A stretch of DNA of 64,000 bases, taken from assembly GCA_009692365.1 (NCBI GenBank), contig SHZJ01000003.1, positions 65,250 through 129,249 on the forward strand. The letters run 5' to 3'. The notes below the pieces were generated by a model. It was not told the DNA's origin, did not search any database, and saw only the letters and a list, made by a program, of their open reading frames with translations. Source of the stretch: Gammaproteobacteria bacterium (GTDB taxonomy: Bacteria > Pseudomonadota > Gammaproteobacteria > Ga0077536). Below are positions 21,492 through 43,938 of this stretch, in pieces; the first letter of the stretch is position 1; every line of letters starts with the position of its first letter. Position numbers and translations under genes: made by a program.

Positions 21492-21536
21492 CCGCCATCT
21501 GCGCCCCATCGCCGGCCGAAAAAGAGCTTAACGCCG

Positions 21537-24122
21537 ATGCAGGTTGAGCGTGTCCGGGCGCTCCGCGGCCCCAATCTGTGGACCCGCCGCTGCGCTATCC
21601 AAGCGCTCGTTACCTGCGAGGAAGCCGAACGCGACCTCCGCCAAATGGGCGGCTTCGTCGAGCGCCTGCGGGCGCTTTATCCGCAACTGCCCCCACTCGC
21701 GCCGGCGGCGGCCGGCAGCACCCTCAGCCTTGCCAACGTGCTGGAAGTCGCGGCCTTGGGTCTGCAGACTCTGCTCGGCTGCCCGGTGTCCTTCGCGCAC
21801 ACGGCGGCGGCACCGGATGTTGGGGTCTCGCAGGTGGTGGTGGAATATGTCGAAGAAGCCATAGGGCTGGGCGCCTTTGCGCTCGCGCAGCGGCTGATCG
21901 AGGCCGCACTTGACGCGCTCGCTTTCGATCTGGACCCCGAACTCAACGCGCTGGGTGAACTCTACGAAACGGTGCGCTTAGGCCCCTCCACGGGTGCCAT
22001 CGTGACGGCGGCCGTGGAGCGCGGCATCCCATTTCGCCGTCTCACCAGCGGCAGTCTGGTGCAATTTGGCTGGGGTAGCCGGCAACGGCGGATTCAGGCC
22101 GCGGAAATGGATCGCACCAGCGCCATCGCCCAGTCCATCGCCCAGGATAAACAACTCACTAAGGAACTACTGCGCGCCGCGGGCGTGCCGGTCCCCGAGG
22201 GGCAAACCGTGCTGGACGCCGCGCAAGCCTGGTCCGTCGCCTGCGCCTTGGGCTTACCCGTCGTCGTGAAGCCACAGGACGGCAATCAAGGTCGCGGCGT
22301 GACGGTGAACATTGAAACCCGCGAACATCTGGAACAGGCATTCCAGGCGGCGGCTGAAGCGGGCACGCAGGTGCTGGTGGAACGCTACATCGCGGGCAGC
22401 GATTACCGCCTGCTGGTGATAGGCGACAAACTCATCGCCGCGGCGCGGCGCGAACCGCCGCAGGTCATTGGCGATGGCGTGCGCAGCGTGCAGGAACTGG
22501 TGGAGGAGGTGAACCGCGACCCACGGCGCGGCGAAGGCCACGCCACTTCGCTGACCCGTATTCGGTTGGACGACATCGCGCGGGCGTGTCTGCAGTTGCA
22601 AAACTGTAGCCCCGAGACCATTCCCGCACTCGGCCAACGGGTGATCATGCGCAACAACGCCAATCTTTCCACCGGCGGCACCGCGACCGATGTCACCGAT
22701 GAAGTCCACCCGGAACTCGCCGCGCGCGCGGTAACCGCCGCCCAAATGGTGGGTCTGGAAATTTGCGGTGTAGACATCGTGTGTCAATCGGTGCGCTTAC
22801 CGCTAGAAGAACAGGCCGGCGGGGTGGTGGAGGTGAACGCCGCACCCGGACTGCGGATGCACCTGGCGCCATCTTTTGGCACGGGACGGCGCGTTGGCGA
22901 GGCCATCGTGGCCGAGATGTTTGCACCGGGCGACGATGCGCGCATTCCGGTCGTGGCGGTCACCGGGACCAACGGCAAAACGACCACCGTGCGCCTGATC
23001 GCCCACCTGCTAGCCAGGTCCGGCCTGCGGGTGGGCATGACCACGACCGACGGCGTGTTCGTGGATGGCCGGCAAATGGACGCCGGCGACTGCAGCGGGC
23101 CGCGCAGCGCGCGCAGTGTGTTGATGCATCCCGAGGTCGATGCGGCGGTGTTTGAGACCGCCCGTGGCGGCATTCTGCGCGCGGGGCTGGCCTTCGACCG
23201 CTGTCGGGTGGCAGTGGTCACCAATATCGGTCGCGGCGACCATCTAGGCCTGAACTTCATCACCACGGTCGAAGATTTAGCGGTGCTCAAGCGCGTCATC
23301 GTCCAAAACGTCGCGCCCACCGGACACGCCGTCTTAAACGCTGACGACCCTATCACGGCGCGGCTGGGCGCGGCCTGCCCCGGCAGCGTCATTTTCTTCT
23401 CCCGTGACCACCTTAATCCCATTATCCTCACCCACCGCGCGCAAGGTCGGCCGATCGTTTTGGCCGCAAAGGACGCCATTAGCTGCGCCATTGACGGCGA
23501 GGAAATCTGCCGCCTAGCGCTGGCTGCAATACCGCTGACGATGGGCGGGCGCATCGGCTTTCAGATTGCGAACGTCATGGCCGCGATCGGAGCGGTGTGG
23601 GCGCTGGGCCTCGAGTGGTCCGTGATCAAAGACGGGCTGGCGACGTTTATCTCGGATGCTGCCAGCACCCCGGGGCGCTTCAACTTGATGGCTTATCGCG
23701 GCGCTACCGTCATCGCCGACTATGGCCACAACCCCGATGCCATGACGGCCTTGGTCGACGCCGTCGTCGCGCTGCCAGCCGCCCGTCGCAGCGTGGTGAT
23801 CAGCGGTGCGGGCGACCGCCGCGACGAGGACATTACCAATCAGACGCGCATACTCGGCGAGGTGTTCGACAGCGTTGTGCTCTATCAAGATGCCTGTCAG
23901 CGCGGACGTGCCGATGGCGAAGTGCTCGCGCTCTTGCGCACCGGACTGGCCAACGCCAGCCGCACGCGCGAGATAACCGAAATCCGGGGCGAATTTATCG
24001 CCATCGACGCCGCACTGGCCGCTTTACGACCCGGCGATTTGTGCCTGATCCTCATCGACCAAGTGGACGAGGCGCTGGCGCATTTAGCGCAACGGGTCGC
24101 CGAGGCTGCCACCGTCTCTTAA
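21537..24122 (+). CDS. cphA: cyanophycin synthetase paralog 2 (CphA, 861 aa, intact Mur-ligase domain)
   Basis: CphA N-domain and ATP-grasp, then an intact VAVTGTNGKTTTVRLIAHLL P-loop and Mur-ligase C-terminal domain. Confidence 0.85.
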   Translation: MQVERVRALRGPNLWTRRCAIQALVTCEEAERDLRQMGGFVERLRALYPQLPPLAPAAAGSTLSLANVLEVAALGLQTLLGCPVSFAHTAAAPDVGVSQVVVEYVEEAIGLGAFALAQRLIEAALDALAFDLDPELNALGELYETVRLGPSTGAIVTAAVERGIPFRRLTSGSLVQFGWGSRQRRIQAAEMDRTSAIAQSIAQDKQLTKELLRAAGVPVPEGQTVLDAAQAWSVACALGLPVVVKPQDGNQGRGVTVNIETREHLEQAFQAAAEAGTQVLVERYIAGSDYRLLVIGDKLIAAARREPPQVIGDGVRSVQELVEEVNRDPRRGEGHATSLTRIRLDDIARACLQLQNCSPETIPALGQRVIMRNNANLSTGGTATDVTDEVHPELAARAVTAAQMVGLEICGVDIVCQSVRLPLEEQAGGVVEVNAAPGLRMHLAPSFGTGRRVGEAIVAEMFAPGDDARIPVVAVTGTNGKTTTVRLIAHLLARSGLRVGMTTTDGVFVDGRQMDAGDCSGPRSARSVLMHPEVDAAVFETARGGILRAGLAFDRCRVAVVTNIGRGDHLGLNFITTVEDLAVLKRVIVQNVAPTGHAVLNADDPITARLGAACPGSVIFFSRDHLNPIILTHRAQGRPIVLAAKDAISCAIDGEEICRLALAAIPLTMGGRIGFQIANVMAAIGAVWALGLEWSVIKDGLATFISDAASTPGRFNLMAYRGATVIADYGHNPDAMTALVDAVVALPAARRSVVISGAGDRRDEDITNQTRILGEVFDSVVLYQDACQRGRADGEVLALLRTGLANASRTREITEIRGEFIAIDAALAALRPGDLCLILIDQVDEALAHLAQRVAEAATVS

Positions 24123-24979: not shown

Positions 24980-27900
24980 TCAGGCCGTACCAGCTTGGGC
25001 TAGCGCCGCCACCGCGCTTAAGAGCACTGTTGGGCTAACCGGCTTGCGAAAAAAGTGCTCAATGCCGGCTTCTTGCGCCGTTTTTACGTTGACGGTGGGG
25101 CTATAGCCCGAGCAGAGCACAATGGGGAGACGGGGGTAAGAGCGCCGTACTTCGTGGGCAAGTTCTAGCCCCGTCATCCGGGGCATGGTTTGATCGGTCA
25201 GTAACACACAGTAATCCGCGGGGCGTGCTTGCAATAGCGCCAGCGCGTCGACACCGTCCGTGGCGCTGTCTACCGCATAACCTTGGCGCCGGAACAACTC
25301 CACCAAATACTTAAGCACCAGTGGTTCGTCGTCCACCACGAGAATGCGCCGTCCGCCGCTGCCGTGCAGCGTGGGGGGCCGACCGGTCTGCTCAGCGAAC
25401 ACTGGCGATTCGGCGCTCAGCGCCGGCGGGAACAGCAGACGAACGCGTGTGCCCGTGCCAGGTGTAGAGGTCACCACGAGGTGTCCAGAACCCCGATGCA
25501 TAATCCCGTGGACCACCGACAAACCCATCCCGGTCCCTTTACCGGGGCCCTTAGTCGTGAAAAACGGGTCGAAAATCTGGGGCAGCACGCTGGGGGCAAT
25601 ACCCTCCCCGTCGTCTGTCACATCAATCACCAGATAGCTTGCGTCGATCGGACTGTGGCAGCCCGAGCACACCGCCTGAACACGCTGGAGCGGCAATAAA
25701 CTGACCAGAATTAGCCCATGCCCGGGCAAGGCGTCGCGGGCGTTGAGGACCAAATTCACCAGCAGTTGGTGCAAATCGGAGGGGTCTAGCAAAGCGACGC
25801 CGCCGCCGGCGGTCTTATTTTCCACCCGCAGTTGGATGCTAGAGGGAATAATGGTCGCCAGCATGCACAACACTTCGTCGAGCAGGGGTGCCGGGTCGAC
25901 GGGATGTAAATCCTCGCGGGGTGCGTTGCGACTGAATTCCAGCATTTTTACCACCAGTTCACGCGCCCGCTCGCCGGCGGCCATCACGGCGTCCAAGTAC
26001 TCATCAACGCGCTCGCTGTGGTCTGGCCAAAGCGAGCGCGCCAGCGAGGTATAACCCAAAATGCTGGCTAGCACATTGTTAAAATCGTGGGCGATACCCC
26101 CCGTTAACTGCCCCAACGCATCCATTCTTTGCGCCTGCAGGAGCTGCCGCTGCAATTGCGTGTGTTCGGCCGCCGCGTTTATCTCGTCGGTGATGTCATC
26201 GACCGTACCCACAAAGCCCCAGAGCACGCCATCCGAGCGCACCGGCCGCGCGCGCGCCCGCACTCTGATCGTCCGTAAGTCGGGTCTGATTAGGGAAAAC
26301 TCCTCTGAGAAAGAGCCGTTTGCCTCCGCTACACACCGCGACCACTGCAACTGCACACGGACACGGTCGTCCGCGGCCACGGACACGCTCCAATCCCAGG
26401 TTAAATCCCAGCTGTTTGACCATCCCAGCATGTCGCGCAGTAAGGGGTTCACGAACAACAGCTCGCCCAGCGGGTTAGTCAGAAACATGCCCACCGGGGA
26501 ATTCTCAACCACCGCACGCAAGCGCTCCTCGCTGGCCTGTTGCGCGGCGTCGGCTTTTTTGCTGGACGTAATATCGTGCAACACGCCGAACACGTGGAGC
26601 GGCCGGCCGAGCTCGTCGCGGGCCCGGACGGCACCCGAACTTAACATCCAGACCCAACTGCCGTCGGCGGCGAGCAGGCGTAATTCCGTCACGAAGTGAG
26701 CCGTTTCACCGGCGCAATGCGCTGCCAGCCGGGCCTCGACGCGCGGCAGGTCGTCCGGATGAATAAATTTGGCCCAGTCGCCGCGTTCCAGGATGGGGGG
26801 CTCGCGCGAGTCGCCCACCAGCCCCAGCACCATCTGATTGACAATCGTGCGTCCGGATACCAGTTCGAAATCCCACAGCCCAAGATGCGCTGAGGAAACC
26901 ACCATCCGGAGCCGCTCCTCCTCGCGCTGAAGACGCTCTTCGATGGCGCGTTTTTCGCTGATATCAACTTGGATCCCGACCATGCGCAGAGCCCGGCCCT
27001 GGGCGCTGCGCTCGGTCACCCGTCCCCGACTCATAATCGTTTTCCGGCTGCCGTCCGCCGCTTGTACCTTCAACTCTACCTGCAACAGACCGTCGCCGCC
27101 TTCACGGAGCACGCGACATATCGCTTGCGCATAACTGGGATACTCATCGTTGCTTAGCCAATTTGCCATCGAGCCGGCCGGGAATCTCAGAGGAGGAGGT
27201 ACTTCGCCGAGTGTTCGTTCCATCCACTGGTTGGTCCGGAGCTCGTCGATGGAGATATCCCAATCCCAGACGCCCAGCCCGGCTGCCTCGACGATCGACT
27301 GCAGGCGCTGTTGGCTGAATTGTGCGCTGGCCTCAGCGGCACGCAATTGCGTGACATCGATATGGGTGCCGACCAACCGCACTGCGCGACCATCGGCGGC
27401 GCGTTCCACCACTTGGCCGCAGACCAGTTGCCAGCGCCAGTCATCGTGTCCACGAAAGCGTGCTTCCACGCTGAAAATGGCCGTCGTGCCCTTGAGGTGT
27501 GCGGTCCCGGCAGCAAGGAAACGGGAGTAGTCGTCCGGGTGAATCAGCTTCAACCACGCCTGAACGTTTTGGACCTCACCCGGCGAGACGGCCAGATAAT
27601 CTAACGCCGGCGATTGGATCTCGGTATGGTCGGCCACCAGATCCCATTCCCAAAAACCGAGGTTACCCGCCCGAATGACCATCTGAATGCGTGCACGCTC
27701 GTGCTCGAGGGCGAGTTCGATGTGTTTTCGTTGCGTGATGTCTAGCGCCACGCCGGCCATGCAGAGTGCTTGACCAGCAGCGTCGCGCTGCGAGATCTGG
27801 CCCCGACTGTGGAGCCACAGCCACGTTCCATCCTGCCGGCGCAAGCGGTATTCACCCACGTATTCCGCGCTTCGGCCCCTGCATAGTGCGGTGACCGCGG

Positions 27901-29773
27901 CCAACTCGCGGTCAATGTCCGCGGGGTGAATACGCGCCTGCCAGTCCGCGAACGTGGTTGGTAGGTCAGCCGGTTGGCAGCCCAGAAGTTCGGCGAGATT
28001 CCCAACCAAACAATGGCACTGCCCGGTGGCGATATTCCATTCCCAGATGCCTAACCGGCCGGCCTGAACGATGACGCTTAGGTGTTGCTGCTGTGCCTGC
28101 AAAGTGTCCTGTGCGGCCACCCGCTGGCGCTCCGCCGCGACGCGGCGCGCTACGAGGGCTAGCAACAGTTCGGCGTCTGGCTCCGCCACATAGGGTTTGT
28201 CGTCGATCGCCCACACCACCCCCGTGACACCGCCCTCGCTGTCCCTGACCGACTGTCCGAGATAACACTCAGCACCCCGCTGGGCGAAGTCACCGGGTAA
28301 GTTAAAACGGCGCGAAAGTTCCATGGGAACGCAGGAAATTTGGTCGGACTGGATGGTCATGGCCCACGGAGAGTCCAGCACCTCCAGGCTGAAAGGCGCC
28401 GCCCGCTTGCCAGAATCCCGGAACGCCATCACCTCGAGGGTGGCCGGCGTGGTCCCAAAAAACGCAACACCGGCCCAGCGTACGTTGAGTCCGACGCCAA
28501 TGACGGCCGCCATTTGATCCCAAAAGCCGTCGCCGATCTCTGCGCGCACCAGCAGTTCTAACCCCTGCCGGTGACATTCGCGCGCGGTCACGTTGGTGCG
28601 GATCGAGATGAACTGCGTCAGGTTACCGCTCTCGTCCTGCGTCGGGGTAATAGTCGTTTGGGCCCAATAAAACGCGCCGGAGCGGTGGCAGTTTCGAATC
28701 AGGCCGTGCCATGTTTTACCCGCGCGAATGGTTCGCCATAAATCCGCAAAAAAGGCCGCCGGATGCGCACCGGAATTCAGTAAGGCGTGGTCTTGGCCCA
28801 CTAATTCCTCCGCAGAATAGCCGCTGGCCTCGCAGAATCGCTGATTCGCGAAAACAATCTTGCCAGCAAGATTAGTCACTGAAACAATCGCATGCGCATC
28901 GAGCGCGCTCCGCAAGGAACTCAGCGACAAATTCCTCTCGCGCAGTTCTTGCTCCCGCTGCAACACCCGTGCGCGGTCTTGCTCAACGCCAGTCATCGTG
29001 GTGTTCAAGGCCCGCGCGAGGTCGCTCAATTCGTCCGCACCCCCCACGCGCAGCGTGACCCCAGTCTCACCTGCGCTAGCCCGCTGGAGGCCCACTTTGA
29101 GGGCCTCCAGCCGCTGCCGAAATGTGCGTTCAAACCAGGCCCACAGCAATAACGTCAGCAACGCTGCGGAACAGGCGGCAAGCGCGACCCGCCACCACCA
29201 CCCAGAGGCGGCCCGCGCGTTCGACCACGCCGAACCTCGTTGGATCAGCAGCCAGCCCCGCTGAGCGGGGGGCTGCGCCGTGGGCAAGGGCACGGTTTCC
29301 AGCATGGTTTGGCTGTCGCCTAGGCCCACCATTTTGGGCGGGTTCGCCGAAAAATGGCTCCGCGTCAAACCCGGCCAATCAGCAAGTACTAAGCTGCTGC
29401 CCACCGCCGTTTGATCGTTGGTTGCGAGCGTGCGCAGTTCCTCATCCAGCAGCATCACGGACTTGACAAAGGGCTCTTTACCTAGCACGCGCAGAGTTTC
29501 TGCCAAGCCACGCAGGTCGCCGGCGGCATAGTGCTGTGCCACATCGGCGGCAGAGGAGCGCGCGGCGGTACTTTGCGCGTTTTGTATAGCTTCGAGCAGC
29601 GCCTGAGTTTGCAGTCGCTGCTGGATCCCGAAACCCAACGCGCCGACCAGTAAGCTGGTCCCCAGAATGGCCACAGGCACCGCGTGCCGCAGAGGCCAGC
29701 GGGACAGCCCATTCGTCAGGGTGGTCACGGGGACAACCGCGGGCCGTGTTGGAGCGGCCGGTGGAGGGGTCAC
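24980..29773 (-). CDS. 1597-aa hybrid sensor histidine kinase: TM/periplasmic sensor, HAMP-like region, at least 5 PAS/PAC modules, HisKA, HATPase and a C-terminal receiver
   Basis: H-box GGIAHDFNNVLASILGY, N/G boxes LVNLVLNARDALPGHG...DDGEGIAPSVLPQIFDPFFTTK...GTGMGLSVV, and receiver ILVVDDEPLV...LLTDQTMPRMTGLEL. Repeated PAS cores carry the WxWD/W pattern. Confidence 0.85.
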   Translation of the reverse strand: MTPPPAAPTRPAVVPVTTLTNGLSRWPLRHAVPVAILGTSLLVGALGFGIQQRLQTQALLEAIQNAQSTAARSSAADVAQHYAAGDLRGLAETLRVLGKEPFVKSVMLLDEELRTLATNDQTAVGSSLVLADWPGLTRSHFSANPPKMVGLGDSQTMLETVPLPTAQPPAQRGWLLIQRGSAWSNARAASGWWWRVALAACSAALLTLLLWAWFERTFRQRLEALKVGLQRASAGETGVTLRVGGADELSDLARALNTTMTGVEQDRARVLQREQELRERNLSLSSLRSALDAHAIVSVTNLAGKIVFANQRFCEASGYSAEELVGQDHALLNSGAHPAAFFADLWRTIRAGKTWHGLIRNCHRSGAFYWAQTTITPTQDESGNLTQFISIRTNVTARECHRQGLELLVRAEIGDGFWDQMAAVIGVGLNVRWAGVAFFGTTPATLEVMAFRDSGKRAAPFSLEVLDSPWAMTIQSDQISCVPMELSRRFNLPGDFAQRGAECYLGQSVRDSEGGVTGVVWAIDDKPYVAEPDAELLLALVARRVAAERQRVAAQDTLQAQQQHLSVIVQAGRLGIWEWNIATGQCHCLVGNLAELLGCQPADLPTTFADWQARIHPADIDRELAAVTALCRGRSAEYVGEYRLRRQDGTWLWLHSRGQISQRDAAGQALCMAGVALDITQRKHIELALEHERARIQMVIRAGNLGFWEWDLVADHTEIQSPALDYLAVSPGEVQNVQAWLKLIHPDDYSRFLAAGTAHLKGTTAIFSVEARFRGHDDWRWQLVCGQVVERAADGRAVRLVGTHIDVTQLRAAEASAQFSQQRLQSIVEAAGLGVWDWDISIDELRTNQWMERTLGEVPPPLRFPAGSMANWLSNDEYPSYAQAICRVLREGGDGLLQVELKVQAADGSRKTIMSRGRVTERSAQGRALRMVGIQVDISEKRAIEERLQREEERLRMVVSSAHLGLWDFELVSGRTIVNQMVLGLVGDSREPPILERGDWAKFIHPDDLPRVEARLAAHCAGETAHFVTELRLLAADGSWVWMLSSGAVRARDELGRPLHVFGVLHDITSSKKADAAQQASEERLRAVVENSPVGMFLTNPLGELLFVNPLLRDMLGWSNSWDLTWDWSVSVAADDRVRVQLQWSRCVAEANGSFSEEFSLIRPDLRTIRVRARARPVRSDGVLWGFVGTVDDITDEINAAAEHTQLQRQLLQAQRMDALGQLTGGIAHDFNNVLASILGYTSLARSLWPDHSERVDEYLDAVMAAGERARELVVKMLEFSRNAPREDLHPVDPAPLLDEVLCMLATIIPSSIQLRVENKTAGGGVALLDPSDLHQLLVNLVLNARDALPGHGLILVSLLPLQRVQAVCSGCHSPIDASYLVIDVTDDGEGIAPSVLPQIFDPFFTTKGPGKGTGMGLSVVHGIMHRGSGHLVVTSTPGTGTRVRLLFPPALSAESPVFAEQTGRPPTLHGSGGRRILVVDDEPLVLKYLVELFRRQGYAVDSATDGVDALALLQARPADYCVLLTDQTMPRMTGLELAHEVRRSYPRLPIVLCSGYSPTVNVKTAQEAGIEHFFRKPVSPTVLLSAVAALAQAGTA

Positions 29774-30876
29774 GTATTGGGCTCACGCAACGGCGAGGGC
29801 AGGTTAGTCTGCTCGGCCGCGCGCTGAATGTCCTCAAACAGGGCGAGGCCCAAGTCTTCGCCGATTTGCTCACGCACCATGAAAGCCTCGGGTTCGCGCT
29901 CTATCAGGTTTAGGAACACCTCGACCAGTGCCGGGTCACGCCAGCCTCGGGCGGTTTCCTCACGCAAGATGCGCAAGACCTCGGAGGTGGGCAGCGCCGG
30001 CTTATAAGGACGTGCGAAGGTGAGCGCATCGTAGATATCGCAAATCTGAAACACCCGGGCTAGCAACGAAATATCCTCCCCCTGCAAGCCGTCGGGATAA
30101 CCACTACCGTCCCAGCGCTCGTGATGGGCGCGGATAATCTGCACCGTGAGGCGAAAACTCTTGAGGCCGCCACACAGGCGTTCTCCGATCACCGGATGGG
30201 TCTTCATGACGCCCCATTCAACGGGCGTGAAGCTGCCGGGTTTCAGTAAGATGGCCTCGGGGATACCCAGCTTGCCGATGTCGTGGAGTACCCCACCCCG
30301 CCGCAGCGCAAGCAGTTCCTCGCCGCTCAGCCCCAGCGCTTGCCCGAAACGCACCGAGTACTGCGCCAGACGCGTGCAGTGGTCGCCCGTGTTGCCGTCT
30401 TTCGCTTCCACCATTCGCGCCAGCGCGAACAGCACGGACTCGGCGCTTTCGAGCTGGTCGGTGAGCCGCTTGCGATAGATGGCGCCATCGACGCGCGCTG
30501 AGAATTCTTGGGCGCTGTAGGGCTTATGAATGAAGTCGGACGCCCCGGCGCGCAGCGCGGCAGACAGCACACTGGTGCTGCCGCCGCCGCCCGTCACCAT
30601 CACGATGGGCAGCAACAGGTTGCCCATTTCTTGCCGGATGGTGCGGCACACCGCCTCCCCGTCTAAGCCTGGCAGATGCTTGTCCAGCACCATGACGTCG
30701 AAGTCCTGTTCGCCGAGCAAGGCGAGCGCCTGCTGTCCGTCTGACGCCTCCGACACGTCGTACTTCGGCGCCTGAAGGATGGCTCGACACAGCGCCCGTT
30801 GATCGGGCTCGTCGTCCACAACCAGCACCTTGAACGGGGACTGGTTCTGGCTCAGGTAGTCGGTTACGTTATTCAT
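29770..30876 (-). CDS. response regulator with HD-GYP domain (RpfG-type c-di-GMP phosphodiesterase)
   Basis: Receiver VLVVDDEPDQ...DVMVLDKHLPGLDG, then HD-GYP motifs HDIGKLGIP...HHERWDGSGYP. 4-bp overlap with the upstream kinase gene. Confidence 0.85.
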   Translation of the reverse strand: MNNVTDYLSQNQSPFKVLVVDDEPDQRALCRAILQAPKYDVSEASDGQQALALLGEQDFDVMVLDKHLPGLDGEAVCRTIRQEMGNLLLPIVMVTGGGGSTSVLSAALRAGASDFIHKPYSAQEFSARVDGAIYRKRLTDQLESAESVLFALARMVEAKDGNTGDHCTRLAQYSVRFGQALGLSGEELLALRRGGVLHDIGKLGIPEAILLKPGSFTPVEWGVMKTHPVIGERLCGGLKSFRLTVQIIRAHHERWDGSGYPDGLQGEDISLLARVFQICDIYDALTFARPYKPALPTSEVLRILREETARGWRDPALVEVFLNLIEREPEAFMVREQIGEDLGLALFEDIQRAAEQTNLPSPLREPNT

Positions 30877-36691: not shown

Positions 36692-37573
36692 TCACGCCGC
36701 GACGGGCACCGTCCGGGTAAGGAAATCGATCACGTAGCGACCAAAAATATCGTTGCGGTCGCCGGCCACCATGTGGCCCGCATCCGTGATGTTGACGTAT
36801 TCGCTGCGGGGGCACAAAGCCAGAAACTCCGCCGCGCCGGCTTCACTCAGGACATCCGACAAACCACCGCGCACCAGCAGGGTGGGTAGATCCAGCGCCA
36901 CCGCGCAGGCCTCTAGGCGCACTAGGCGCTTGTCCATTTCGCGCCGCATGCTCATAAAACGGGGGTCCCAGTGCCAGCGAAATTTACCGACCGGCGTGCG
37001 CCGCAGATTTTTGGCGAGCCCCGCGAGGTCTTTGGGCGCCTGCCGGTGTGGCTGATAGGCGGCGATCGCGAGCGCGACTTCTTCCAGCGTATCGAAACCC
37101 TCGGGTCGCTGGTCCATGAACTGCTGAATCTTCAAAACCCCTGCCGGCTCGACGCGCGGCGCAATATCGACCAGCACCAACGCCGCGGCCTGCACCCGAC
37201 CTTCACCGGTGGCCACGAGACTGGTCACCCCGCCCATCGAGGCGCCCACCAACACCGGCCGGCGACCGCCCAGCGCCTTGAGTACGCAGCTCAGGTCCTC
37301 CACCATGAGGTCTTGGCCGTACAGACCATCGGGCGCCCAATCGGAGTCGCCGTGGCCACGCGCGTCGATGGCGACCGCGTAATAGCCCACGGCGCCCAGA
37401 GTCTCCCCCACATTTTTCCACGCGTGGCGGGTTTGTCCGCCGCCGTGCTGGAGCACGACCAAAGGTCCGCTTGCGGTGCCCCAACTGTCCCCGGCGATCA
37501 TCACGCCTTGCGCACCCGGCCAGCGGTGCATGGGATCGGGGGTGCCTGGAAGTCTCTCGTCTGCGCTAATCAT
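36692..37573 (-). CDS. alpha/beta-fold hydrolase
   Basis: ORF 36692..37696, trimmed to the Met at 37573 (MISADERLPG...). Nucleophile elbow GASMGG. Confidence 0.7.
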   Translation of the reverse strand: MISADERLPGTPDPMHRWPGAQGVMIAGDSWGTASGPLVVLQHGGGQTRHAWKNVGETLGAVGYYAVAIDARGHGDSDWAPDGLYGQDLMVEDLSCVLKALGGRRPVLVGASMGGVTSLVATGEGRVQAAALVLVDIAPRVEPAGVLKIQQFMDQRPEGFDTLEEVALAIAAYQPHRQAPKDLAGLAKNLRRTPVGKFRWHWDPRFMSMRREMDKRLVRLEACAVALDLPTLLVRGGLSDVLSEAGAAEFLALCPRSEYVNITDAGHMVAGDRNDIFGRYVIDFLTRTVPVAA

Positions 37574-37619
37574 TGGGTGCTCGATTCTGTGTGAAGGGTG
37601 TCGACATTGTCGGACGATT

Positions 37620-37653
37620 ACGCCGGGCGTCAAGCTGCGCGCGAAAGCGCAGC
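37620..37653. promoter_or_regulatory. two adjacent perfect inverted repeats (acgcc-g-ggcgt, and gctgcgc-N6-gcgcagc) 50-80 bp upstream of the hydrolase start: candidate operator
   Basis: Seen directly in sequence. Confidence 0.3.
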
Positions 37654-37748
37654 CACCGCGCAGTGCATTGGTGGAATAATCTGTGGCTTCAAGCACACCT
37701 GACTAATATCGCTCACCGGGAAGCAGCACCTGGGCACTGTCACGCAAG

Positions 37749-38331: not shown

Positions 38332-38895
38332 TTAACGGCGCAGGAGACGGCCCAGCGCAAGGCGGGTGGATTCGAAAGCAATCCGCGAAGGATCCACCGC
38401 CGAGGGCGCCAGCCACTCCAGAGCGGTCGCCTCGTCGTTAGGCACAAAGGGCACACGGTGGGGCACGCTACAGCTAAAAAACACATCCACCGTGCTGTAG
38501 CGCACGCCATGAAAAAGATAGCGATTGGGAATTGAAAAAAGATAACCGAGCCCCTGTGGCTCAAAACCCACCTCCTCCCGGGTTTCGCGCACTAGCGCTG
38601 CTTCGAGCGATTCATCGCGCTCGACAAATCCGCCCGGCAGGTCGAGCAGACCCGCGCCGGGCTCTTGGGCGCGGGTAATCCATGCCACGGCACCGGCGTG
38701 TTCAATCACCGCCGAAACCGCGACAGCCGTGTTGTGGAAATAGGTATGCCCACATTCAGAACAGCCGTAGAGCTTGTGGTCCAGGGTTTCCAAGGCGGCG
38801 TTGCCGCAGCTCGGGCAGTAGTAGCGGCGCGCCAACGCCCGCGCTACCGCGCCTGGGTCGGATGAGGGTCCTTCAGGCACGGGCGGTCGACCCAC
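38332..38895 (-). CDS. NUDIX hydrolase with N-terminal zinc ribbon
   Basis: CPSCG...CSECGH then Nudix box GGFVERDESLEAALVRETREEVG. 23-nt overlap with the upstream SDR gene, so the start is uncertain. Confidence 0.7.
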   Translation of the reverse strand: MGRPPVPEGPSSDPGAVARALARRYYCPSCGNAALETLDHKLYGCSECGHTYFHNTAVAVSAVIEHAGAVAWITRAQEPGAGLLDLPGGFVERDESLEAALVRETREEVGFEPQGLGYLFSIPNRYLFHGVRYSTVDVFFSCSVPHRVPFVPNDEATALEWLAPSAVDPSRIAFESTRLALGRLLRR

Positions 38896-39727: not shown

Positions 39728-40375
39728 TTATTCCTCGCGCTGCCTCCCGCCTAGGCGCAGCAAGTCTTCATGCAATTCGAACCACACCGTGTGATAACTA
39801 TCCGAGCGCGCGTCACTGACTGCGGCCGTCGCGCCGGCTTCGGCTTTCTCCAGCGCCGCGTCGAGCTTTTGCTGATACACACACAGCCGTGGCTCGCCGG
39901 CGATGAGCGCGAGCAAGATGGGCTCAAAACGCTCGTGTAGGGCGCCCAAGCGGTCGATGATGCGGCGGTCGTACTCAACGTCCGAATGGTCATTGGGAAC
40001 CCGCCGTCCGCCAATTGCCAGCGTCTGCCAATCGGTAATGAGCTGTTTTAAATCCACGTTAATGCGTTCAAAACGCTTGCAGGCTGCAGTAAACGCCGCA
40101 TTAGCTCGCAGCCTGACGTAAAAGCGCGAATATTCGCTGGCCAGAATGAGCTGGCCGGCGGGCGAAAGCAGAAAGCGGCCGTTGGTATTGACGATGCGTC
40201 CGTGCGTCACGCCGCTCGCCAAGACCTGCTCAACCCGGGCGCTGGGCAGGCCACACACGCTGGCAATATCCGCCGCGTTACCGTGTTTTCGAATAGCCAC
40301 ACCGTGCATGACGAGATGTAAATCTGGCTTCACTGCGAGGCCCTCCGTTGGAGTTGCAAGGAGTAGGTTAGTCAT
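39728..40375 (-). CDS. hypothetical protein, N-terminal winged-helix-like segment plus ~150-aa helical domain
   Basis: ORF 39728..40474, trimmed to the ATG at 40375 (MTNLLLATPTEGL...). That ATG overlaps the stop of the upstream 516-aa gene (ATGACTAA), which implies translational coupling. Confidence 0.5.
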   Translation of the reverse strand: MTNLLLATPTEGLAVKPDLHLVMHGVAIRKHGNAADIASVCGLPSARVEQVLASGVTHGRIVNTNGRFLLSPAGQLILASEYSRFYVRLRANAAFTAACKRFERINVDLKQLITDWQTLAIGGRRVPNDHSDVEYDRRIIDRLGALHERFEPILLALIAGEPRLCVYQQKLDAALEKAEAGATAAVSDARSDSYHTVWFELHEDLLRLGGRQREE

Positions 40376-41918
40376 TCGCGCGCAGCGACTCGATGTCGTC
40401 GCGCCGCAAACCGGCACCGGCGTCTTTAAGCAGGCGCGAGTGCTTCTGTTCGAGCTTAAAAAGTTCATCCGCACGCGAGGTCTGGGCGTGATATTTCACC
40501 CAATCCGCGCAGAGGTATCGGTATTGCGCCTGGCACACGGTGGGCACCAGTGCGCGCGCGCGACGCATAAATTCTGCCAGCGACAGCACGCCCTGCGTGG
40601 TGCGGTAGCGATCATTCTTGCGCGGCAAAGTGCTGTCTCCGGGTCGCAACGGCCCGACGGACGCCGTGTAGTCGCCGTCTTCGAGAATAGAGTAGGGAAT
40701 GTAGGACAGGGCACGCGTGGGGGCATCGTTGTGCTGCATCATCGTATAGTCGTGCAGGCGCTGGCTGGGGGTGCTGATATAGCCCACCAACTCGCCCAGA
40801 AAAAGATTGCCGTACTCGTCGTTCAGCAGTGGACGAAAGCGCTCAGCCCGCTCGTCGATTAGCATCCAGTCTTCCATTTCATAACAGCCCGCGATGACGG
40901 CAAATTCTTTGATCACCGCATAGTAGGTCAGCGCGCCCGCATCGAGTTGCTGATCGCGCGTCCAGCCGGTCATTTCCCGCCACAGCTTGGCGGTGGCGGT
41001 TTTGATGCGACCGGTGAGGTCGACAAACGCTGCGGTGAGCGCTGCGGCGCTCTCCATGCCGACTGGCAGCGGCCCATCCGAGAGGGTATCGGCGGTATAC
41101 AGCCCCACCCCGACCATGTGCTCCCCACGCATTTCGGGCGCGGATTCAAAAGACCCCCAATCATCCAGCAGACTGATATGACAGCCTTCGAGGATCATCG
41201 TCACCGTCAGATTGTTGTAGGGAATGTCCGCACCCACGCCATCCAGCCAAGGCGGGCCAGATTCCGCGAGTTCCAAAAAATCGCGAACCAACATCTGGCG
41301 TTGATCAGACACCCGGTAGGGCCCGTGACTGTGCAGCGTGAGGCGACTTTCACAGGAGACGAGAAACCCGTACTGCGCGGTAGTGGCCAGAAAAGCCTGC
41401 GCCGCTTGGTGCAGCGGGTCGCCTTCGCGGCACTCAAAAGCATCCGCGTGAAAAACCTGCAACCGCTGTTCGGGCAGCACCTGGGCACGATGACCGGCCT
41501 GTCGGTTGGTAAGATTGCCGTTGTTACGATGCCAAGACAGCTGGAAGCGCTTCCAAAAATCTAGCGTGTACATGACATCGAGGGCAGCATCGGTCGGCTT
41601 GATGACCCCCCAATTGATCAGCATCTCGCGCCCCAGCAGGTAGAAGCAGGGCATGCACCACGCCACAATTTTGATCCCTTGATGACGCGCCCGGTCGCCA
41701 ATTTCCTCTGCCGAGAGGTGCTCCTCAATTTTGCGCAATAGCGCCGGGTAGCGATAAAAGCAATTTAAATAAGAGAACAGGATGTAGGCGGAAACCGGGA
41801 AAATTTTGGACTCCTGAACGGTGCGCGTGGCACACAGCCAGTAGGTCTCATCGGCGTTCTGTTGGATGAGATTATTGGTCTCGAGCAGTTGAGCGTAGGT
41901 GAGTGATGGCGTCGGCAT
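40368..41918 (-). CDS. 516-aa protein of unrecognized family
   Basis: Long uninterrupted ORF with protein-like composition. I found no motifs of PPDK_N/ATP-grasp, kinases or other families. Confidence 0.65.
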   Translation of the reverse strand: MPTPSLTYAQLLETNNLIQQNADETYWLCATRTVQESKIFPVSAYILFSYLNCFYRYPALLRKIEEHLSAEEIGDRARHQGIKIVAWCMPCFYLLGREMLINWGVIKPTDAALDVMYTLDFWKRFQLSWHRNNGNLTNRQAGHRAQVLPEQRLQVFHADAFECREGDPLHQAAQAFLATTAQYGFLVSCESRLTLHSHGPYRVSDQRQMLVRDFLELAESGPPWLDGVGADIPYNNLTVTMILEGCHISLLDDWGSFESAPEMRGEHMVGVGLYTADTLSDGPLPVGMESAAALTAAFVDLTGRIKTATAKLWREMTGWTRDQQLDAGALTYYAVIKEFAVIAGCYEMEDWMLIDERAERFRPLLNDEYGNLFLGELVGYISTPSQRLHDYTMMQHNDAPTRALSYIPYSILEDGDYTASVGPLRPGDSTLPRKNDRYRTTQGVLSLAEFMRRARALVPTVCQAQYRYLCADWVKYHAQTSRADELFKLEQKHSRLLKDAGAGLRRDDIESLRAND

Positions 41919-41948
41919 AGCAGCGATTCCTGTAGTGGGACGGTGGCC

Positions 41949-42686
41949 TCAGGCCTGAAGCAGTCGAAAAACACGGGCGCTGACATCAGTCCCGGCCTGA
42001 TAGTCGTCGCCGGTTTTTGCGCGCGCGGTGACCTCTAATTCCAGCCGGTCGCCATCTTTAATGCCCGCCAGACGGGCGTTCATGAGACAGGGAATGCCGT
42101 ACTCGCGGGTGAGGATCGCCAGATGGGAGCGGGTGGTGCCACCGGCGCACAACACACCCTTAAATTGCTCCAGCACCGGGGCCGTGAGCGTGCCCCCCGA
42201 ATCTTCCACCAGCGCGATGATGTTGGCAGGCACCCCGTGGGTGAGATAGTCCAGCACCTTGTCGCTGGTGCGCACGTAATGGGCAATTCCGATGAGATTC
42301 TCGCGCCGCGACACGACATTGTCGCCCGCGCCACACAGCTCACGGCCATCGGCCGCCGCCGGCGCGGTGGGCGCTTCGGGGTGTTCAAAACTGAAATCCG
42401 CGCGCGCCAAACCGGCGTCTTTATAGGCTTCGGGCCGCTCTCTGGCGGAGGACATCGCCGAGGGCTCGAAGCGGTATCCGTTCGACAACAACTGCGCTTC
42501 GATGTGTGCGAGGTCCGCTTTGGTAATGACCTCATAGCCCCTACCCGCCACAAAATCTTGCCAATCGCCGCCGACTTCTGCGGCGCGTCGCCGCACTAAA
42601 TCTTTCACTGCAGCGTTGTAGGCCTCGACGATCGCAAAGGTCGATTGCCAAGCGTATTTGTCGTTATCCGCGTAGAGCATTGCCAT
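41949..42686 (-). CDS. PEP-utilising-enzyme mobile (phosphohistidine swivel) domain protein, 245 aa with a ~120-aa unknown N-terminal region
   Basis: C-terminal GVPANIIALVEDSGGTLTAPVLEQFKGVLCAGGTTRSHLAILTREYGIPCLMNARLAGIKDGDRLELEV matches the PEP synthase/PPDK swivel His domain (GGxTSHAAIxAREyGIPxVxN). Confidence 0.7.
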   Translation of the reverse strand: MAMLYADNDKYAWQSTFAIVEAYNAAVKDLVRRRAAEVGGDWQDFVAGRGYEVITKADLAHIEAQLLSNGYRFEPSAMSSARERPEAYKDAGLARADFSFEHPEAPTAPAAADGRELCGAGDNVVSRRENLIGIAHYVRTSDKVLDYLTHGVPANIIALVEDSGGTLTAPVLEQFKGVLCAGGTTRSHLAILTREYGIPCLMNARLAGIKDGDRLELEVTARAKTGDDYQAGTDVSARVFRLLQA

Positions 42687-42704
42687 GCGTTCTCCCCGTG
42701 TAGT

Positions 42705-43730
42705 TCATTGTGTGAAGGACTGCTGCAGGCGGGCCCGCTCTAGCGGCCCGACCCCCAGCGCCTGCTGGAGAAAGTCCGCCTCGCTCCCGTAGCGCGCGTC
42801 GATGACCGCAAAGACGCACTCCAAATAAGACTCGCGCGTGACCAGCAACGGATCCATCAAGGCGTTAACATCGCGGCCGGGCCTAGGTGCTACTGCGTAT
42901 TTAGCCAGCGCACGCGGCAATTCTAACGCCGCAGGATAATACCGCCGAGACAGACAAAAATCGTACAGGACCGTCGCGCGCGACACCCCTAGCGCCAGAA
43001 GCACCAGCGCCGCCCCCACGCCCGTGCGCTCCTTCCCCGCCGAACAGTTCATCAAGATGCTGCCGGACGGTGCGGCCAGCAGCACGTCGAATAGTTGCGC
43101 GTAACGGCCAATGGCGTCCTCGACCATGGAGCGCATGACCTCGTGGACCGCCTCGATTATGACGGCTGGGTCATCGGTTTGCGCAAATAGTCGGTGAAAG
43201 AAAAAGCGATCCTTCAAGCCCGGCGCAATGCCGAGGGTGACGACCGTCGGGGCGCAGTCCAGCGCGCCCTCTTCGTTGAGGCGCTCCTCGGCCATCCTGA
43301 AATCGCAGACCGTGCGGATATCGAGCGTGTTGAGCAACGCTTGGTCGGCGGGCGTGAGGCGCGACAAATGGCCCGAGCGAAACAGCCGCCCCCAGCTGAC
43401 CCGACGACCAGCGGCGGCCAGATAACCGCCGAGGTCTCTGAAATTGACCCCGCCCTCCAACAACACCTCGCGCGGGCCCACTATCAGCGGCGGACCCGCA
43501 GCGGGTACCAGTTCGAAATAGGGTCTGGGCAGATGTCCTAGGCCACCGATTTCAATTGCACCCAGGGCGGGCGGTGCGCAGGGCTGGCGCCGATCGATAG
43601 CCGCGGGGGCGGCCCCAGCATAGACCATCACGGGGGTCTGGCTGAAAGCGCTATCCCAGCTCAGCCGCCAGCGCCCCTCGCCCACCCGTGCTACCTCGAT
43701 ACCTTGAAAAATATCCATGCTGAGCCTCAT
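42705..43730 (-). CDS. CX5R protein tyrosine/Ser-Thr phosphatase-like enzyme (Y_phosphatase3-like)
   Basis: NFRDLGG near the N-terminus and P-loop CSAGKERTG. The ORF runs to 43811 but its first 27 codons are Arg-rich, so the Met at 43730 or 43718 is the preferred start. Confidence 0.7.
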   Translation of the reverse strand: MRLSMDIFQGIEVARVGEGRWRLSWDSAFSQTPVMVYAGAAPAAIDRRQPCAPPALGAIEIGGLGHLPRPYFELVPAAGPPLIVGPREVLLEGGVNFRDLGGYLAAAGRRVSWGRLFRSGHLSRLTPADQALLNTLDIRTVCDFRMAEERLNEEGALDCAPTVVTLGIAPGLKDRFFFHRLFAQTDDPAVIIEAVHEVMRSMVEDAIGRYAQLFDVLLAAPSGSILMNCSAGKERTGVGAALVLLALGVSRATVLYDFCLSRRYYPAALELPRALAKYAVAPRPGRDVNALMDPLLVTRESYLECVFAVIDARYGSEADFLQQALGVGPLERARLQQSFTQ

Positions 43731-43938
43731 TTTTTGTTGTGATACCGGGCGGCCCCGCCGGGGCGACACTGCCCGCGGCGGCCTACGGTCGCGCATTTGG
43801 CCCCGCCACACCAGAGCACCTTTTGCGCACGAGGTAGGTCGGCCGATCTAGGCAGCGGCGGTGCAATCTCCTATTGTGCAGGGCCATGAATTTCCCGCAC
43901 CGTTTCAGCCTCGTCCCAGCGCAGCGCACCTAGCCGCT

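Follow-up and report, generated by a model that had tools for sequence, protein, structure and literature searches.

A candidate phosphate-tagging cassette built around a phosphohistidine swivel protein in uncultured Gammaproteobacteria

Introduction

What does a phosphohistidine swivel protein do when its gene lies between those of a phosphatase and of two proteins that belong to no named family? The question is raised by positions 39728-43730 of a 64,000-nt stretch of gammaproteobacterial DNA (below, the window), where four such genes, lettered A, B, C and D, are followed by a gene for a short-chain dehydrogenase/reductase (SDR). The original prediction, made from the sequence, took the four genes for a split phosphotransferase fed by phosphoenolpyruvate (PEP), in which the phosphatase resets the cycle. 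Following up this prediction computationally, we propose, with a probability of about 0.5, that A-B-C-D-SDR is a catabolic phosphate-tagging cassette, that is, a version of the pathways in which a compound is phosphorylated, modified and dephosphorylated again.

Such pathways have been described in several bacteria. In the Hpe pathway of Rhodococcus rhodochrous GD02, the dikinase HpeHI puts a phosphate on the phenol, HpeCBA carboxylates the phosphorylated ketone only, HpeD removes the phosphate, and HpeE and HpeF form the CoA ester and then split it (PMC9618137); Sphingobium SYK-6 has a homologous pathway, Acv (bioRxiv 10.1101/2022.04.28.489975). In two-component dikinases the phosphorylated swivel histidine moves back and forth between the ATP-grasp site and an acceptor site apart from it (PMC12167813). 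The kinase slot of an Acv/Hpe-type pathway can also be filled by a non-homologous kinase, as MarK (UPF0261) does in Novosphingobium aromaticivorans (PMC12624787). For Corynebacterium glutamicum, a gene table of the Cre pathway lists the kinase CreHI, the cytochrome P450 (P450) system CreJEF, CreG, CreC and the phosphohydrolase CreD (PMC7764795).

Results

The genes of the cassette, in the order of transcription, are the following.

42705-43730, minus strand: A, CX5R phosphatase of the Y_phosphatase3 family, 341 aa (Pfam PF13350 and motif)
41949-42686, minus strand: B, phosphohistidine swivel protein, 245 aa (Pfam PF00391 and histidine motif)
40368-41918, minus strand: C, family-less protein of 516 aa, proposed acceptor (substrate) module
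39728-40375, minus strand: D, winged-helix and four-helix-bundle protein, 215 aa from the ATG at 40375, likelier 201 aa
38873-39655, minus strand: fifth gene, SDR of 260 aa (generic SDR matches)

The list of open reading frames (ORFs) and the sequence confirmed that 39728-43730 holds four intact ORFs, all on the minus strand, with gaps of 18 bp between A and B and of 30 bp between B and C. The SDR gene starts 72 bp 3' of D behind its own ribosome-binding site (AAGAGGA), and a terminator scan found no terminator-like site between the two genes. We mapped the window proteins and their recurrent neighbours onto the 80 best loci, calling a locus testable if its contig is long enough to show the neighbour in question. 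B, C and D stand together wherever the contig allows (80 of 80 loci). Fifty-five loci, the window among them, were classed as type 1; here C shows 69-95% identity and the order is A-B-C-D-SDR, with a carboxyltransferase-like gene between D and the SDR gene in six. A lies directly 5' of B in 50 of the 51 testable type-1 loci, and D is followed in 39 of 40 by the SDR gene, whose product (70-95% identity) is better conserved than A or D. Because of this regular succession, the unit comprises the five genes A-B-C-D-SDR and not the four first delimited, and because the flanks differ among type-1 loci, it moves as a unit. That the genes are unrelated and adjacent by chance has nothing in its favour beyond the housekeeping flanks of the window; it is refuted by an order and orientation kept in 80 loci, in varied contexts and in other phyla, and by gene fusions, and we give it practically no credence.

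The fusions bear on the central proteins. C-D fusions of 722 aa occur among the C homologues, and an exhaustive profile search for C, which returned 516 representatives, found shorter C cores (~370-445 aa, corresponding to C residues ~13-380) as well as proteins with an N-terminal swivel. The swivel is fused to the C core in P0175, P0225, P0253 and L085:7478-9106. P0253 is a triple fusion of N-terminal swivel, C core and D, and heads a large actinobacterial family of ~770-aa 'PEP-utilizing enzymes' from Conexibacter, Paraconexibacter, Pseudonocardia, Actinomycetospora and others; D aligns with the C-terminal part of these proteins. The natural swivel-C, C-D and swivel-C-D fusions support the view that B, C and D form one enzyme and that C is a new partner of the swivel, as had been suggested for the 516-aa protein from the outset. 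We consider it probable, though not assured, that B-C-D works as one enzyme of small-molecule catabolism which depends on phosphohistidine and has A as its functional partner.

B had been described as a stand-alone swivel domain. It matches the Pfam PEP-utilizers mobile domain (PF00391) with 33.1 bits (cut-off 23.1) and carries the conserved histidine, but the match covers residues 169-217 only and the protein is not a bare domain: a ~110-aa N-terminal extension and a Pro/Ala-rich linker precede it. Matches in NCBIfam were likewise confined to the swivel parts, namely those of PEP synthases, enzyme I of the phosphotransferase system, rifampin-phosphotransferase-like proteins and the PRK08296 group. 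The catalytic-loop histidine lies within GTTRSHLAI, and all 78 B homologues, as well as the fusions, share the motif G-T-x-R-S-H. The canonical swivel motif is GGxT(S/C)H with a regulatory Thr (PMC12167813). Since B has Thr in place of the second Gly and Arg in place of the Thr at position -2, it is, judged by its motif, a divergent swivel subfamily.

C was found to lack an assignable family, as originally stated. No match was obtained in Pfam, NCBIfam, PADLOC or the PDB sequences, with thresholds relaxed to E <= 1-10 (E <= 10 for the PDB). It is nevertheless widespread, with a relative in at least 424 of the species genomes scanned. None of the 862 close homologues has an assigned name, and cluster look-ups of distant relatives gave 'PEP-utilizing enzyme' (Gordonia otitidis) as the sole useful one. 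The AlphaFold2 model of C (predicted local distance difference test, pLDDT, 85.4; predicted template modelling score, pTM, 0.87) combines helices with an antiparallel sheet and is not a TIM barrel. A Foldseek search of the model against the PDB returned nothing at E <= 1e-3 (best TM score ~0.15), and no chain of rifampin phosphotransferase (RPH) was among the hits. HpeH, the acceptor/swivel subunit of a phenolic dikinase, by contrast aligns with RPH over 473 residues (PMC12167813), so that C, as modelled, is not the HpeH/RPH substrate domain. A known dikinase domain in C, which the original prediction had regarded as fatal to its case, was thus recovered neither as a family nor as a Foldseek or RPH match.

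Conservation in C was assessed over 40 split and fused members from Gammaproteobacteria, Alphaproteobacteria and Actinobacteria. Within the core (residues ~13-380), Arg97, Arg124, Arg192, Arg212 and Asp253 are invariant or nearly so, as are the aromatic residues Tyr45, Trp87, Phe185, Tyr201, Trp224 and Tyr332. The conserved arginines and aromatics are compatible with a putative site that binds phosphate and an aromatic group. The C-terminal ~140 aa (residues ~380-516; 40368-40800) are found in the split proteobacterial and the Rhodococcus forms and are missing from the short C-core proteins and the swivel-C-D fusions; around the junction, at residues ~370-400, the model has low confidence (pLDDT 51-67).

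For D, in which the original prediction had noted a winged-helix-like N-terminal segment, the model shows a MarR-like winged helix together with a four-helix bundle. There was no match in Pfam (MarR included), NCBIfam or the PDB sequences. The sole PADLOC match, MkoB at E 0.022, is at chance level, and a role in anti-phage defence was rejected. The C-terminal motif S-x-H-T-V-W-x-E-x-H-E is invariant and also kept in the fusions. The winged helix could be taken to mean that the cassette is a regulatory module, with D as a MarR-like transcription factor and B-C as a phosphorylation-dependent sensor for neighbouring catabolic genes; D is joined to enzyme domains in many lineages, and we see very little likelihood in this reading.

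The start of D also had to be revised. The ATGACTAA string, which had been read as an overlap of C and D that implies translational coupling, is present at the junction, but its ATG (40375) is probably not the start of D; the real start would be the GTG at 40333, which gives 201 aa. In L001, the closest relative (82% nucleotide identity, fully syntenic), the spot reads AACGACTGA and has no ATG, while the GTG is kept. Moreover, GGAGGG lies 5' of the GTG, most of the matches listed among the 2278 D homologues found have 201 aa, and the model of the long form is disordered over residues 1-10. Coupling is nonetheless a trait of the family, even if it does not occur at the ATGACTAA codon of the window, because genuine ATGA stop/start overlaps of C and D exist in L015, L034 and L036.

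The other 25 loci of the survey are paralogous. In this type 2, C shows 61-65% identity, all genes lie on one strand, and the order is (SCP-x-type thiolase)-B-C-(AMP-ligase)-D-tPPDK-BCCP-biotin carboxylase-carboxyltransferase-thiolase-(SDR), where BCCP is the biotin carboxyl carrier protein and tPPDK a truncated pyruvate phosphate dikinase (PPDK) made of PPDK_N (ATP-grasp) and PEP-utilizers (swivel) domains. tPPDK scores 707 bits on NCBIfam PRK05878, ends after the swivel without a TIM barrel, and is present in 17 of 17 type-2 loci with enough downstream DNA. No homologue of A was found within 8 kb at any type-2 locus, nor another phosphatase among the unnamed neighbours. In Gammaproteobacteria the two types are therefore complementary, type 1 having A and no tPPDK, type 2 tPPDK and no A, and 22 of the 25 assemblies with a type-2 locus also hold a type-1 locus. 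This complementarity within the same genomes supports, without proving it, a partner encoded elsewhere for the window copy. An ATP-grasp partner, which the original prediction proposed to look for, thus adjoins the swivel component at type-2 and actinobacterial loci (17 of 17 testable type-2 loci, 7 of 8 others) and is lacking at type 1, the window included.

Some features of these loci were noted in passing. The carboxyltransferase gene between D and the SDR gene of six type-1 loci is PycB-like, and L028 also has a BCCP-like gene. A hydantoinase A/B pair adjoins ~14 type-1 cassettes (L020, L028, L034, L038, L045-L049 and others; e.g. L028:2105-5991); we take this family to include acetone and acetophenone carboxylases. 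The clade of the window has lost, or never had, both the hydantoinase pair and the PycB-like carboxyltransferase. Although it has no PEP/pyruvate domain, tPPDK scores above the curated threshold of PRK05878 (e.g. L074:10172-11911), a model named 'pyruvate, phosphate dikinase'; this name probably misstates the function of the whole family. Rv1127c of Mycobacterium tuberculosis is presumably a truncated PPDK of this family and may adjoin C- or D-like genes (Rv1125, Rv1126c). Finally, L001, L004, L017, L040, L055, L064 and L065 are freshwater metagenome-assembled genomes titled 'Klebsiella pneumoniae' or 'Hydrogenophaga intermedia'; these titles look wrong, as ~62% G+C and the gene content are those of uncultured Gammaproteobacteria related to the window organism.

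Loci on plasmids of cultured organisms were found by tblastn of C against plasmids. In actinobacterial and alphaproteobacterial loci, tPPDK stands beside B-C-D in 7 of 8 cases, the exception being L084. Plasmids pRB98 of Rhodococcus oxybenzonivorans S2-17 and pA of R. pyridinivorans P23 unite B-C-D, tPPDK, the carboxylase and a homologue of A in a single operon, in the order B-C-AMP-ligase-D-tPPDK-BCCP-biotin carboxylase-carboxyltransferase-OB-fold protein (DUF35)-thiolase-'tyrosine-protein phosphatase'-SRPBCC, where the 'tyrosine-protein phosphatase' is the PF13350 homologue of A (30% identity). On pROB02 of R. opacus B4, ferredoxin, reductase and tPPDK genes lie on one side; the other holds genes for a P450, an aldehyde dehydrogenase (ALDH), a zinc-dependent alcohol dehydrogenase (ADH), a CoA-ligase-family protein and a phosphotransferase, together with a fused B-C-D (793 aa) and a homologue of A. 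In Paraconexibacter, Pseudonocardia and Conexibacter, tPPDK immediately follows the B-C-D fusion, and the neighbours include P450, ALDH, SDR, HAD-hydrolase, phenol-hydroxylase-like, extradiol-dioxygenase-like and FAA-hydrolase genes. Plasmid pSA1 of Novosphingobium resinovorum carries C-BCCP-biotin carboxylase-carboxyltransferase-ligase-thiolase and, close by, B-D-tPPDK.

The actinobacterial loci hold further genes of related kinds. Just upstream of the main operon, the Rhodococcus plasmids have a second, shorter set (L085:5905-10275, L087:5311-8882) consisting of a bare swivel (125-148 aa), a C core (398 aa) and a swivel-C-core fusion (542 aa in L085, longer in L087), without D and without a carboxylase. 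DUF7064/DUF7065 proteins and phosphotransferases of the APH/EcKL (ecdysteroid-kinase-like) type recur beside the swivel-C-D fusions (L082:14971-16941, L083:13924-14847, L084:12325-13254, L085:9130-10275, L088:8240-9262 and L088:12524-13588) and suggest additional uncharacterised phospho-chemistry in these clusters.

These loci bear on the phosphoryl donor. In the original prediction, PEP charges B, C accepts the phosphate or provides the catalysis, and A returns the phosphorylated enzyme to its starting state. The swivel domain is indeed common to PEP-using enzymes, an ATP-grasp partner gene is missing from the window, and a CX5R phosphatase is tightly linked. However, no PEP/pyruvate TIM-barrel domain was found in any locus examined, nor in A-D by Pfam and NCBIfam, and the model of C is of another kind; ATP-grasp tPPDK recurs as the partner elsewhere; and in the analogous characterised pathways the phosphatase acts on a metabolite (PMC9618137; bioRxiv 10.1101/2022.04.28.489975). 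Because tPPDK stands beside B-C-D at the paralogous and other loci and a TIM barrel is found nowhere, ATP is more likely than PEP to be the donor, and we regard the PEP-driven version as rather improbable.

Type-1 B-C-D might also need no donor at all and take the phosphate for fresh substrate from a product that already bears one, or shift it between pathway intermediates, with A releasing it in the end. In favour of such a transphosphorylase, HpeH alone passes phosphate from 4-phosphoacetophenone to acetovanillone (PMC12167813), and type-1 loci never contain tPPDK although the same genomes hold a complete type-2 set. The idea is built on analogy and absence, however, and Rhodococcus gets by with one copy of B-C-D, encoded in the same operon as tPPDK and A; the chances of this reading appear slim.

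A itself is well placed in its family: it scores 185.8 bits against Pfam Y_phosphatase3 (PF13350; cut-off 22.2), and its active-site loop C-x5-R reads C-S-A-G-K-E-R, in agreement with its first description as a CX5R phosphatase. The Pfam domain leaves ~90 N-terminal aa uncovered, and a second ATG at 43718, preceded by GAGG, may be the true start. Homologues of A belong to the B-C-D operons of Rhodococcus, and their position corresponds to a slot occupied in both Hpe-like and Cre-like clusters. By this analogy, A is likelier to strip the phosphate off a small-molecule intermediate, which is what HpeD, AcvF and CreD do, than to reset the enzyme. An aryl phosphate is, by our own reasoning, chemically near to phosphotyrosine and would fit a CX5R phosphatase.

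The clusters were then compared with characterised systems. The Hpe, Acv and Xcc (Aromatoleum EbN1) clusters share their logic and gene content with the type-2 locus and the Rhodococcus operons: a swivel-histidine dikinase, BCCP and biotin carboxylase alongside a PycB-like carboxyltransferase, a CoA ligase, an enzyme that cleaves a C-C bond, and a dedicated phosphatase. The window locus is without carboxylase, ligase or thiolase; the full set stands in one cluster on pRB98 and pA, is split over type 1 and type 2 in Gammaproteobacteria, and is absent in the window. The systems differ in three parts. The putative kinase is not HpeHI but a PPDK-type ATP-grasp protein carrying its own swivel, the proposed acceptor, B+C+D, does not share the fold of the HpeH/RPH substrate domain (PMC12167813), and the phosphatase is a CX5R enzyme of PF13350, not a HAD (NagD-like) one. 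To the extent that the gene table describes it, the Cre pathway is alike in that the substrate is phosphorylated, its side chain oxidised and the phosphate removed. Its layout is echoed by pROB02 and Paraconexibacter, where the fused B-C-D, tPPDK and (in B4) the A homologue stand among P450, ALDH and ADH/SDR genes; the window keeps the core of kinase part, dehydrogenase and phosphatase, without P450 or ALDH. The kinase components are non-homologous to those listed for Cre. By analogy, B-C-D with tPPDK would take the kinase slot, and the A family the phosphatase slot, in both the Hpe and the Cre templates.

At the level of the enzyme, PpsAB, CreHI, HpeHI and RPH likewise use a swivel phosphohistidine and an enzyme split over several polypeptides. 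Their acceptor is RPH-like, with the swivel at its C terminus, whereas here the fold is another one and the swivel is separate or, in the fusions, N-terminal; in addition, there is an obligatory winged-helix/four-helix-bundle subunit and a second swivel on the ATP-grasp protein. PPDK and PEP synthase share the swivel domain (B) and, at the partner loci, the PPDK-type ATP-grasp; they differ by their PEP/pyruvate TIM barrel, which this system lacks, and by the motif GGxTSH in place of the GTTRSH of B. MarK, in contrast, is a single-protein ATP kinase of unrelated sequence without a phosphohistidine swivel.

The carboxylases of several loci allow a different substrate chemistry, in which B-C-D and tPPDK act on a methyl ketone rather than a hydroxyl, the resulting enol phosphate feeds the linked carboxylases, and A hydrolyses stray enol or acyl phosphates. 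Several observations would suit such an enol-phosphate synthase. The partner is PPDK-type, and PPDK turns the methyl ketone pyruvate into PEP; the linked carboxyltransferase is PycB/OadA-like, of a family acting on pyruvate enolate; the SDR, CoA ligase and thiolases would suit a route from secondary alcohol via ketone to beta-keto acid; and the hydantoinase A/B genes beside ~14 type-1 loci, presumably of the acetone/acetophenone carboxylase family, point the same way. On the other hand, B-C-D and A also occur in P450/ALDH/ADH clusters without a carboxylase, where an enol phosphate has no obvious role, and an always-linked phosphatase is hard to justify if the phosphate departs during carboxylation. 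In the substrate of the homologous carboxylase HpeCBA, moreover, the phosphate sits on the phenol and stays after carboxylation (PMC9618137). We consider this chemistry unlikely, though it deserves more weight than the other alternatives.

The surroundings of the cassette in the window include two further features.

38332-38895, minus strand: NUDIX hydrolase (NUDIX-type NCBIfam matches), its start overlapping the SDR stop
43731-43860: divergent intergenic region between A and mlaF, 130 bp, presumed promoter region of the cassette

A simple sigma-70 scan of the 130-bp region gave nothing convincing. Among the 80 loci, only L001-L005 and L023 have NUDIX behind the SDR gene; it may be a passenger that the clade of the window alone has retained. 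An alpha/beta hydrolase gene further 3' of it (36692-37696, minus strand) follows the cassette only in the same loci. The 64 kb contain no tPPDK, carboxylase or hydantoinase gene. Elsewhere in the window, two neighbouring cyanophycin-synthetase-like genes (19350-24122, plus strand), one of 713 aa with a Cyanophycin_syn N-domain and ATP-grasp and one of 861 aa with additional Mur-ligase domains, resemble a pair of CphA and CphA-like genes, and 24980-30876 (minus strand) encodes a hybrid histidine kinase of 1597 aa, rich in PAS domains, and behind it a response-regulator/HD-GYP-type (HD_5) protein.

Discussion

Linkage and fusion of the genes, conservation of the histidine, the folds and the analogy of pathway slots lead us to the following working model of phosphate tagging. 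B, C and D would together make up a single enzyme that serves as the acceptor half of a multi-component dikinase of the phosphohistidine (swivel) type. tPPDK, supplied from the type-2 locus of the same genome, would load an ATP phosphate onto a swivel histidine; the phosphate would reach the histidine of B and then a hydroxyl, probably phenolic, of a small hydrophobic substrate held by C, with the four-helix bundle of D adding conserved His, Glu, Arg and Lys residues. The tagged compound would be processed further, in the window by the SDR, which may oxidise a side-chain alcohol, and at the type-2 locus by biotin carboxylase, CoA ligase and thiolase. Lastly, A would hydrolyse the aryl phosphate. 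The pRB98/pA operon, which follows the same logic as HpeHI/HpeCBA/HpeD/HpeE/HpeF, supports this model, as does the precedent of kinase swapping set by MarK (PMC12624787). We give roughly even odds that B-C-D together with tPPDK constitutes an unrecognised class of multi-component small-molecule dikinase with an acceptor fold absent from the PDB.

Several points weigh against the model. A search for an ATP-grasp partner of the swivel found none in the window and none less than 8 kb from a type-1 locus, so that the donor for the window copy has to be assumed to be encoded elsewhere, and the cassette sits among housekeeping genes (mla, opgGH, a DegP-like protease and two-component systems), not in a catabolic island. 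C shows neither a nucleotide- or phosphate-binding motif that could be recognised nor a relative by fold, and its acceptor role is argued by elimination. The proposed system contains two swivel domains, that of tPPDK and that of B, which the model leaves unaccounted for. Y_phosphatase3 enzymes could target proteins instead of small molecules, and D could, given its modelled MarR-like winged helix, bind DNA.

The original prediction was essentially right as an observation and half right as an interpretation. It called the combination undescribed, and this holds for the families C and D: full-text searches turned up no description of them or of these clusters, the relevant papers being confined to those on Hpe, Acv, MarK and Cre, and databases name C, D and the fusions only 'hypothetical protein' or 'PEP-utilizing enzyme'. 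The combination as such, however, looks like a non-homologous replacement of the kinase and phosphatase of Hpe, Acv and Cre (PMC9618137, PMC12167813, PMC12624787). A swivel-histidine dikinase with a phosphatase in phosphorylation-initiated catabolism is known; the architecture, the acceptor fold, the extra subunit and the type of phosphatase are new.

Phosphorylation-initiated catabolism of phenolics (Pps, Cre, Hpe/Acv and MarK) is a young field with relevance to lignin valorisation and pollutant degradation, and the Rhodococcus plasmids pRB98, pA and pROB02, all of which hold the genes, offer tractable hosts. If the model is correct, there would be a third, structurally unrelated way to build the kinase step, and a tyrosine-phosphatase-type enzyme could serve as the metabolite phosphatase of a pathway. 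Two widespread family-less proteins, C and D, and the orphan tPPDK family (PRK05878) would acquire roles, and abundant uncultured freshwater Gammaproteobacteria would carry phosphorylation-initiated pathways.

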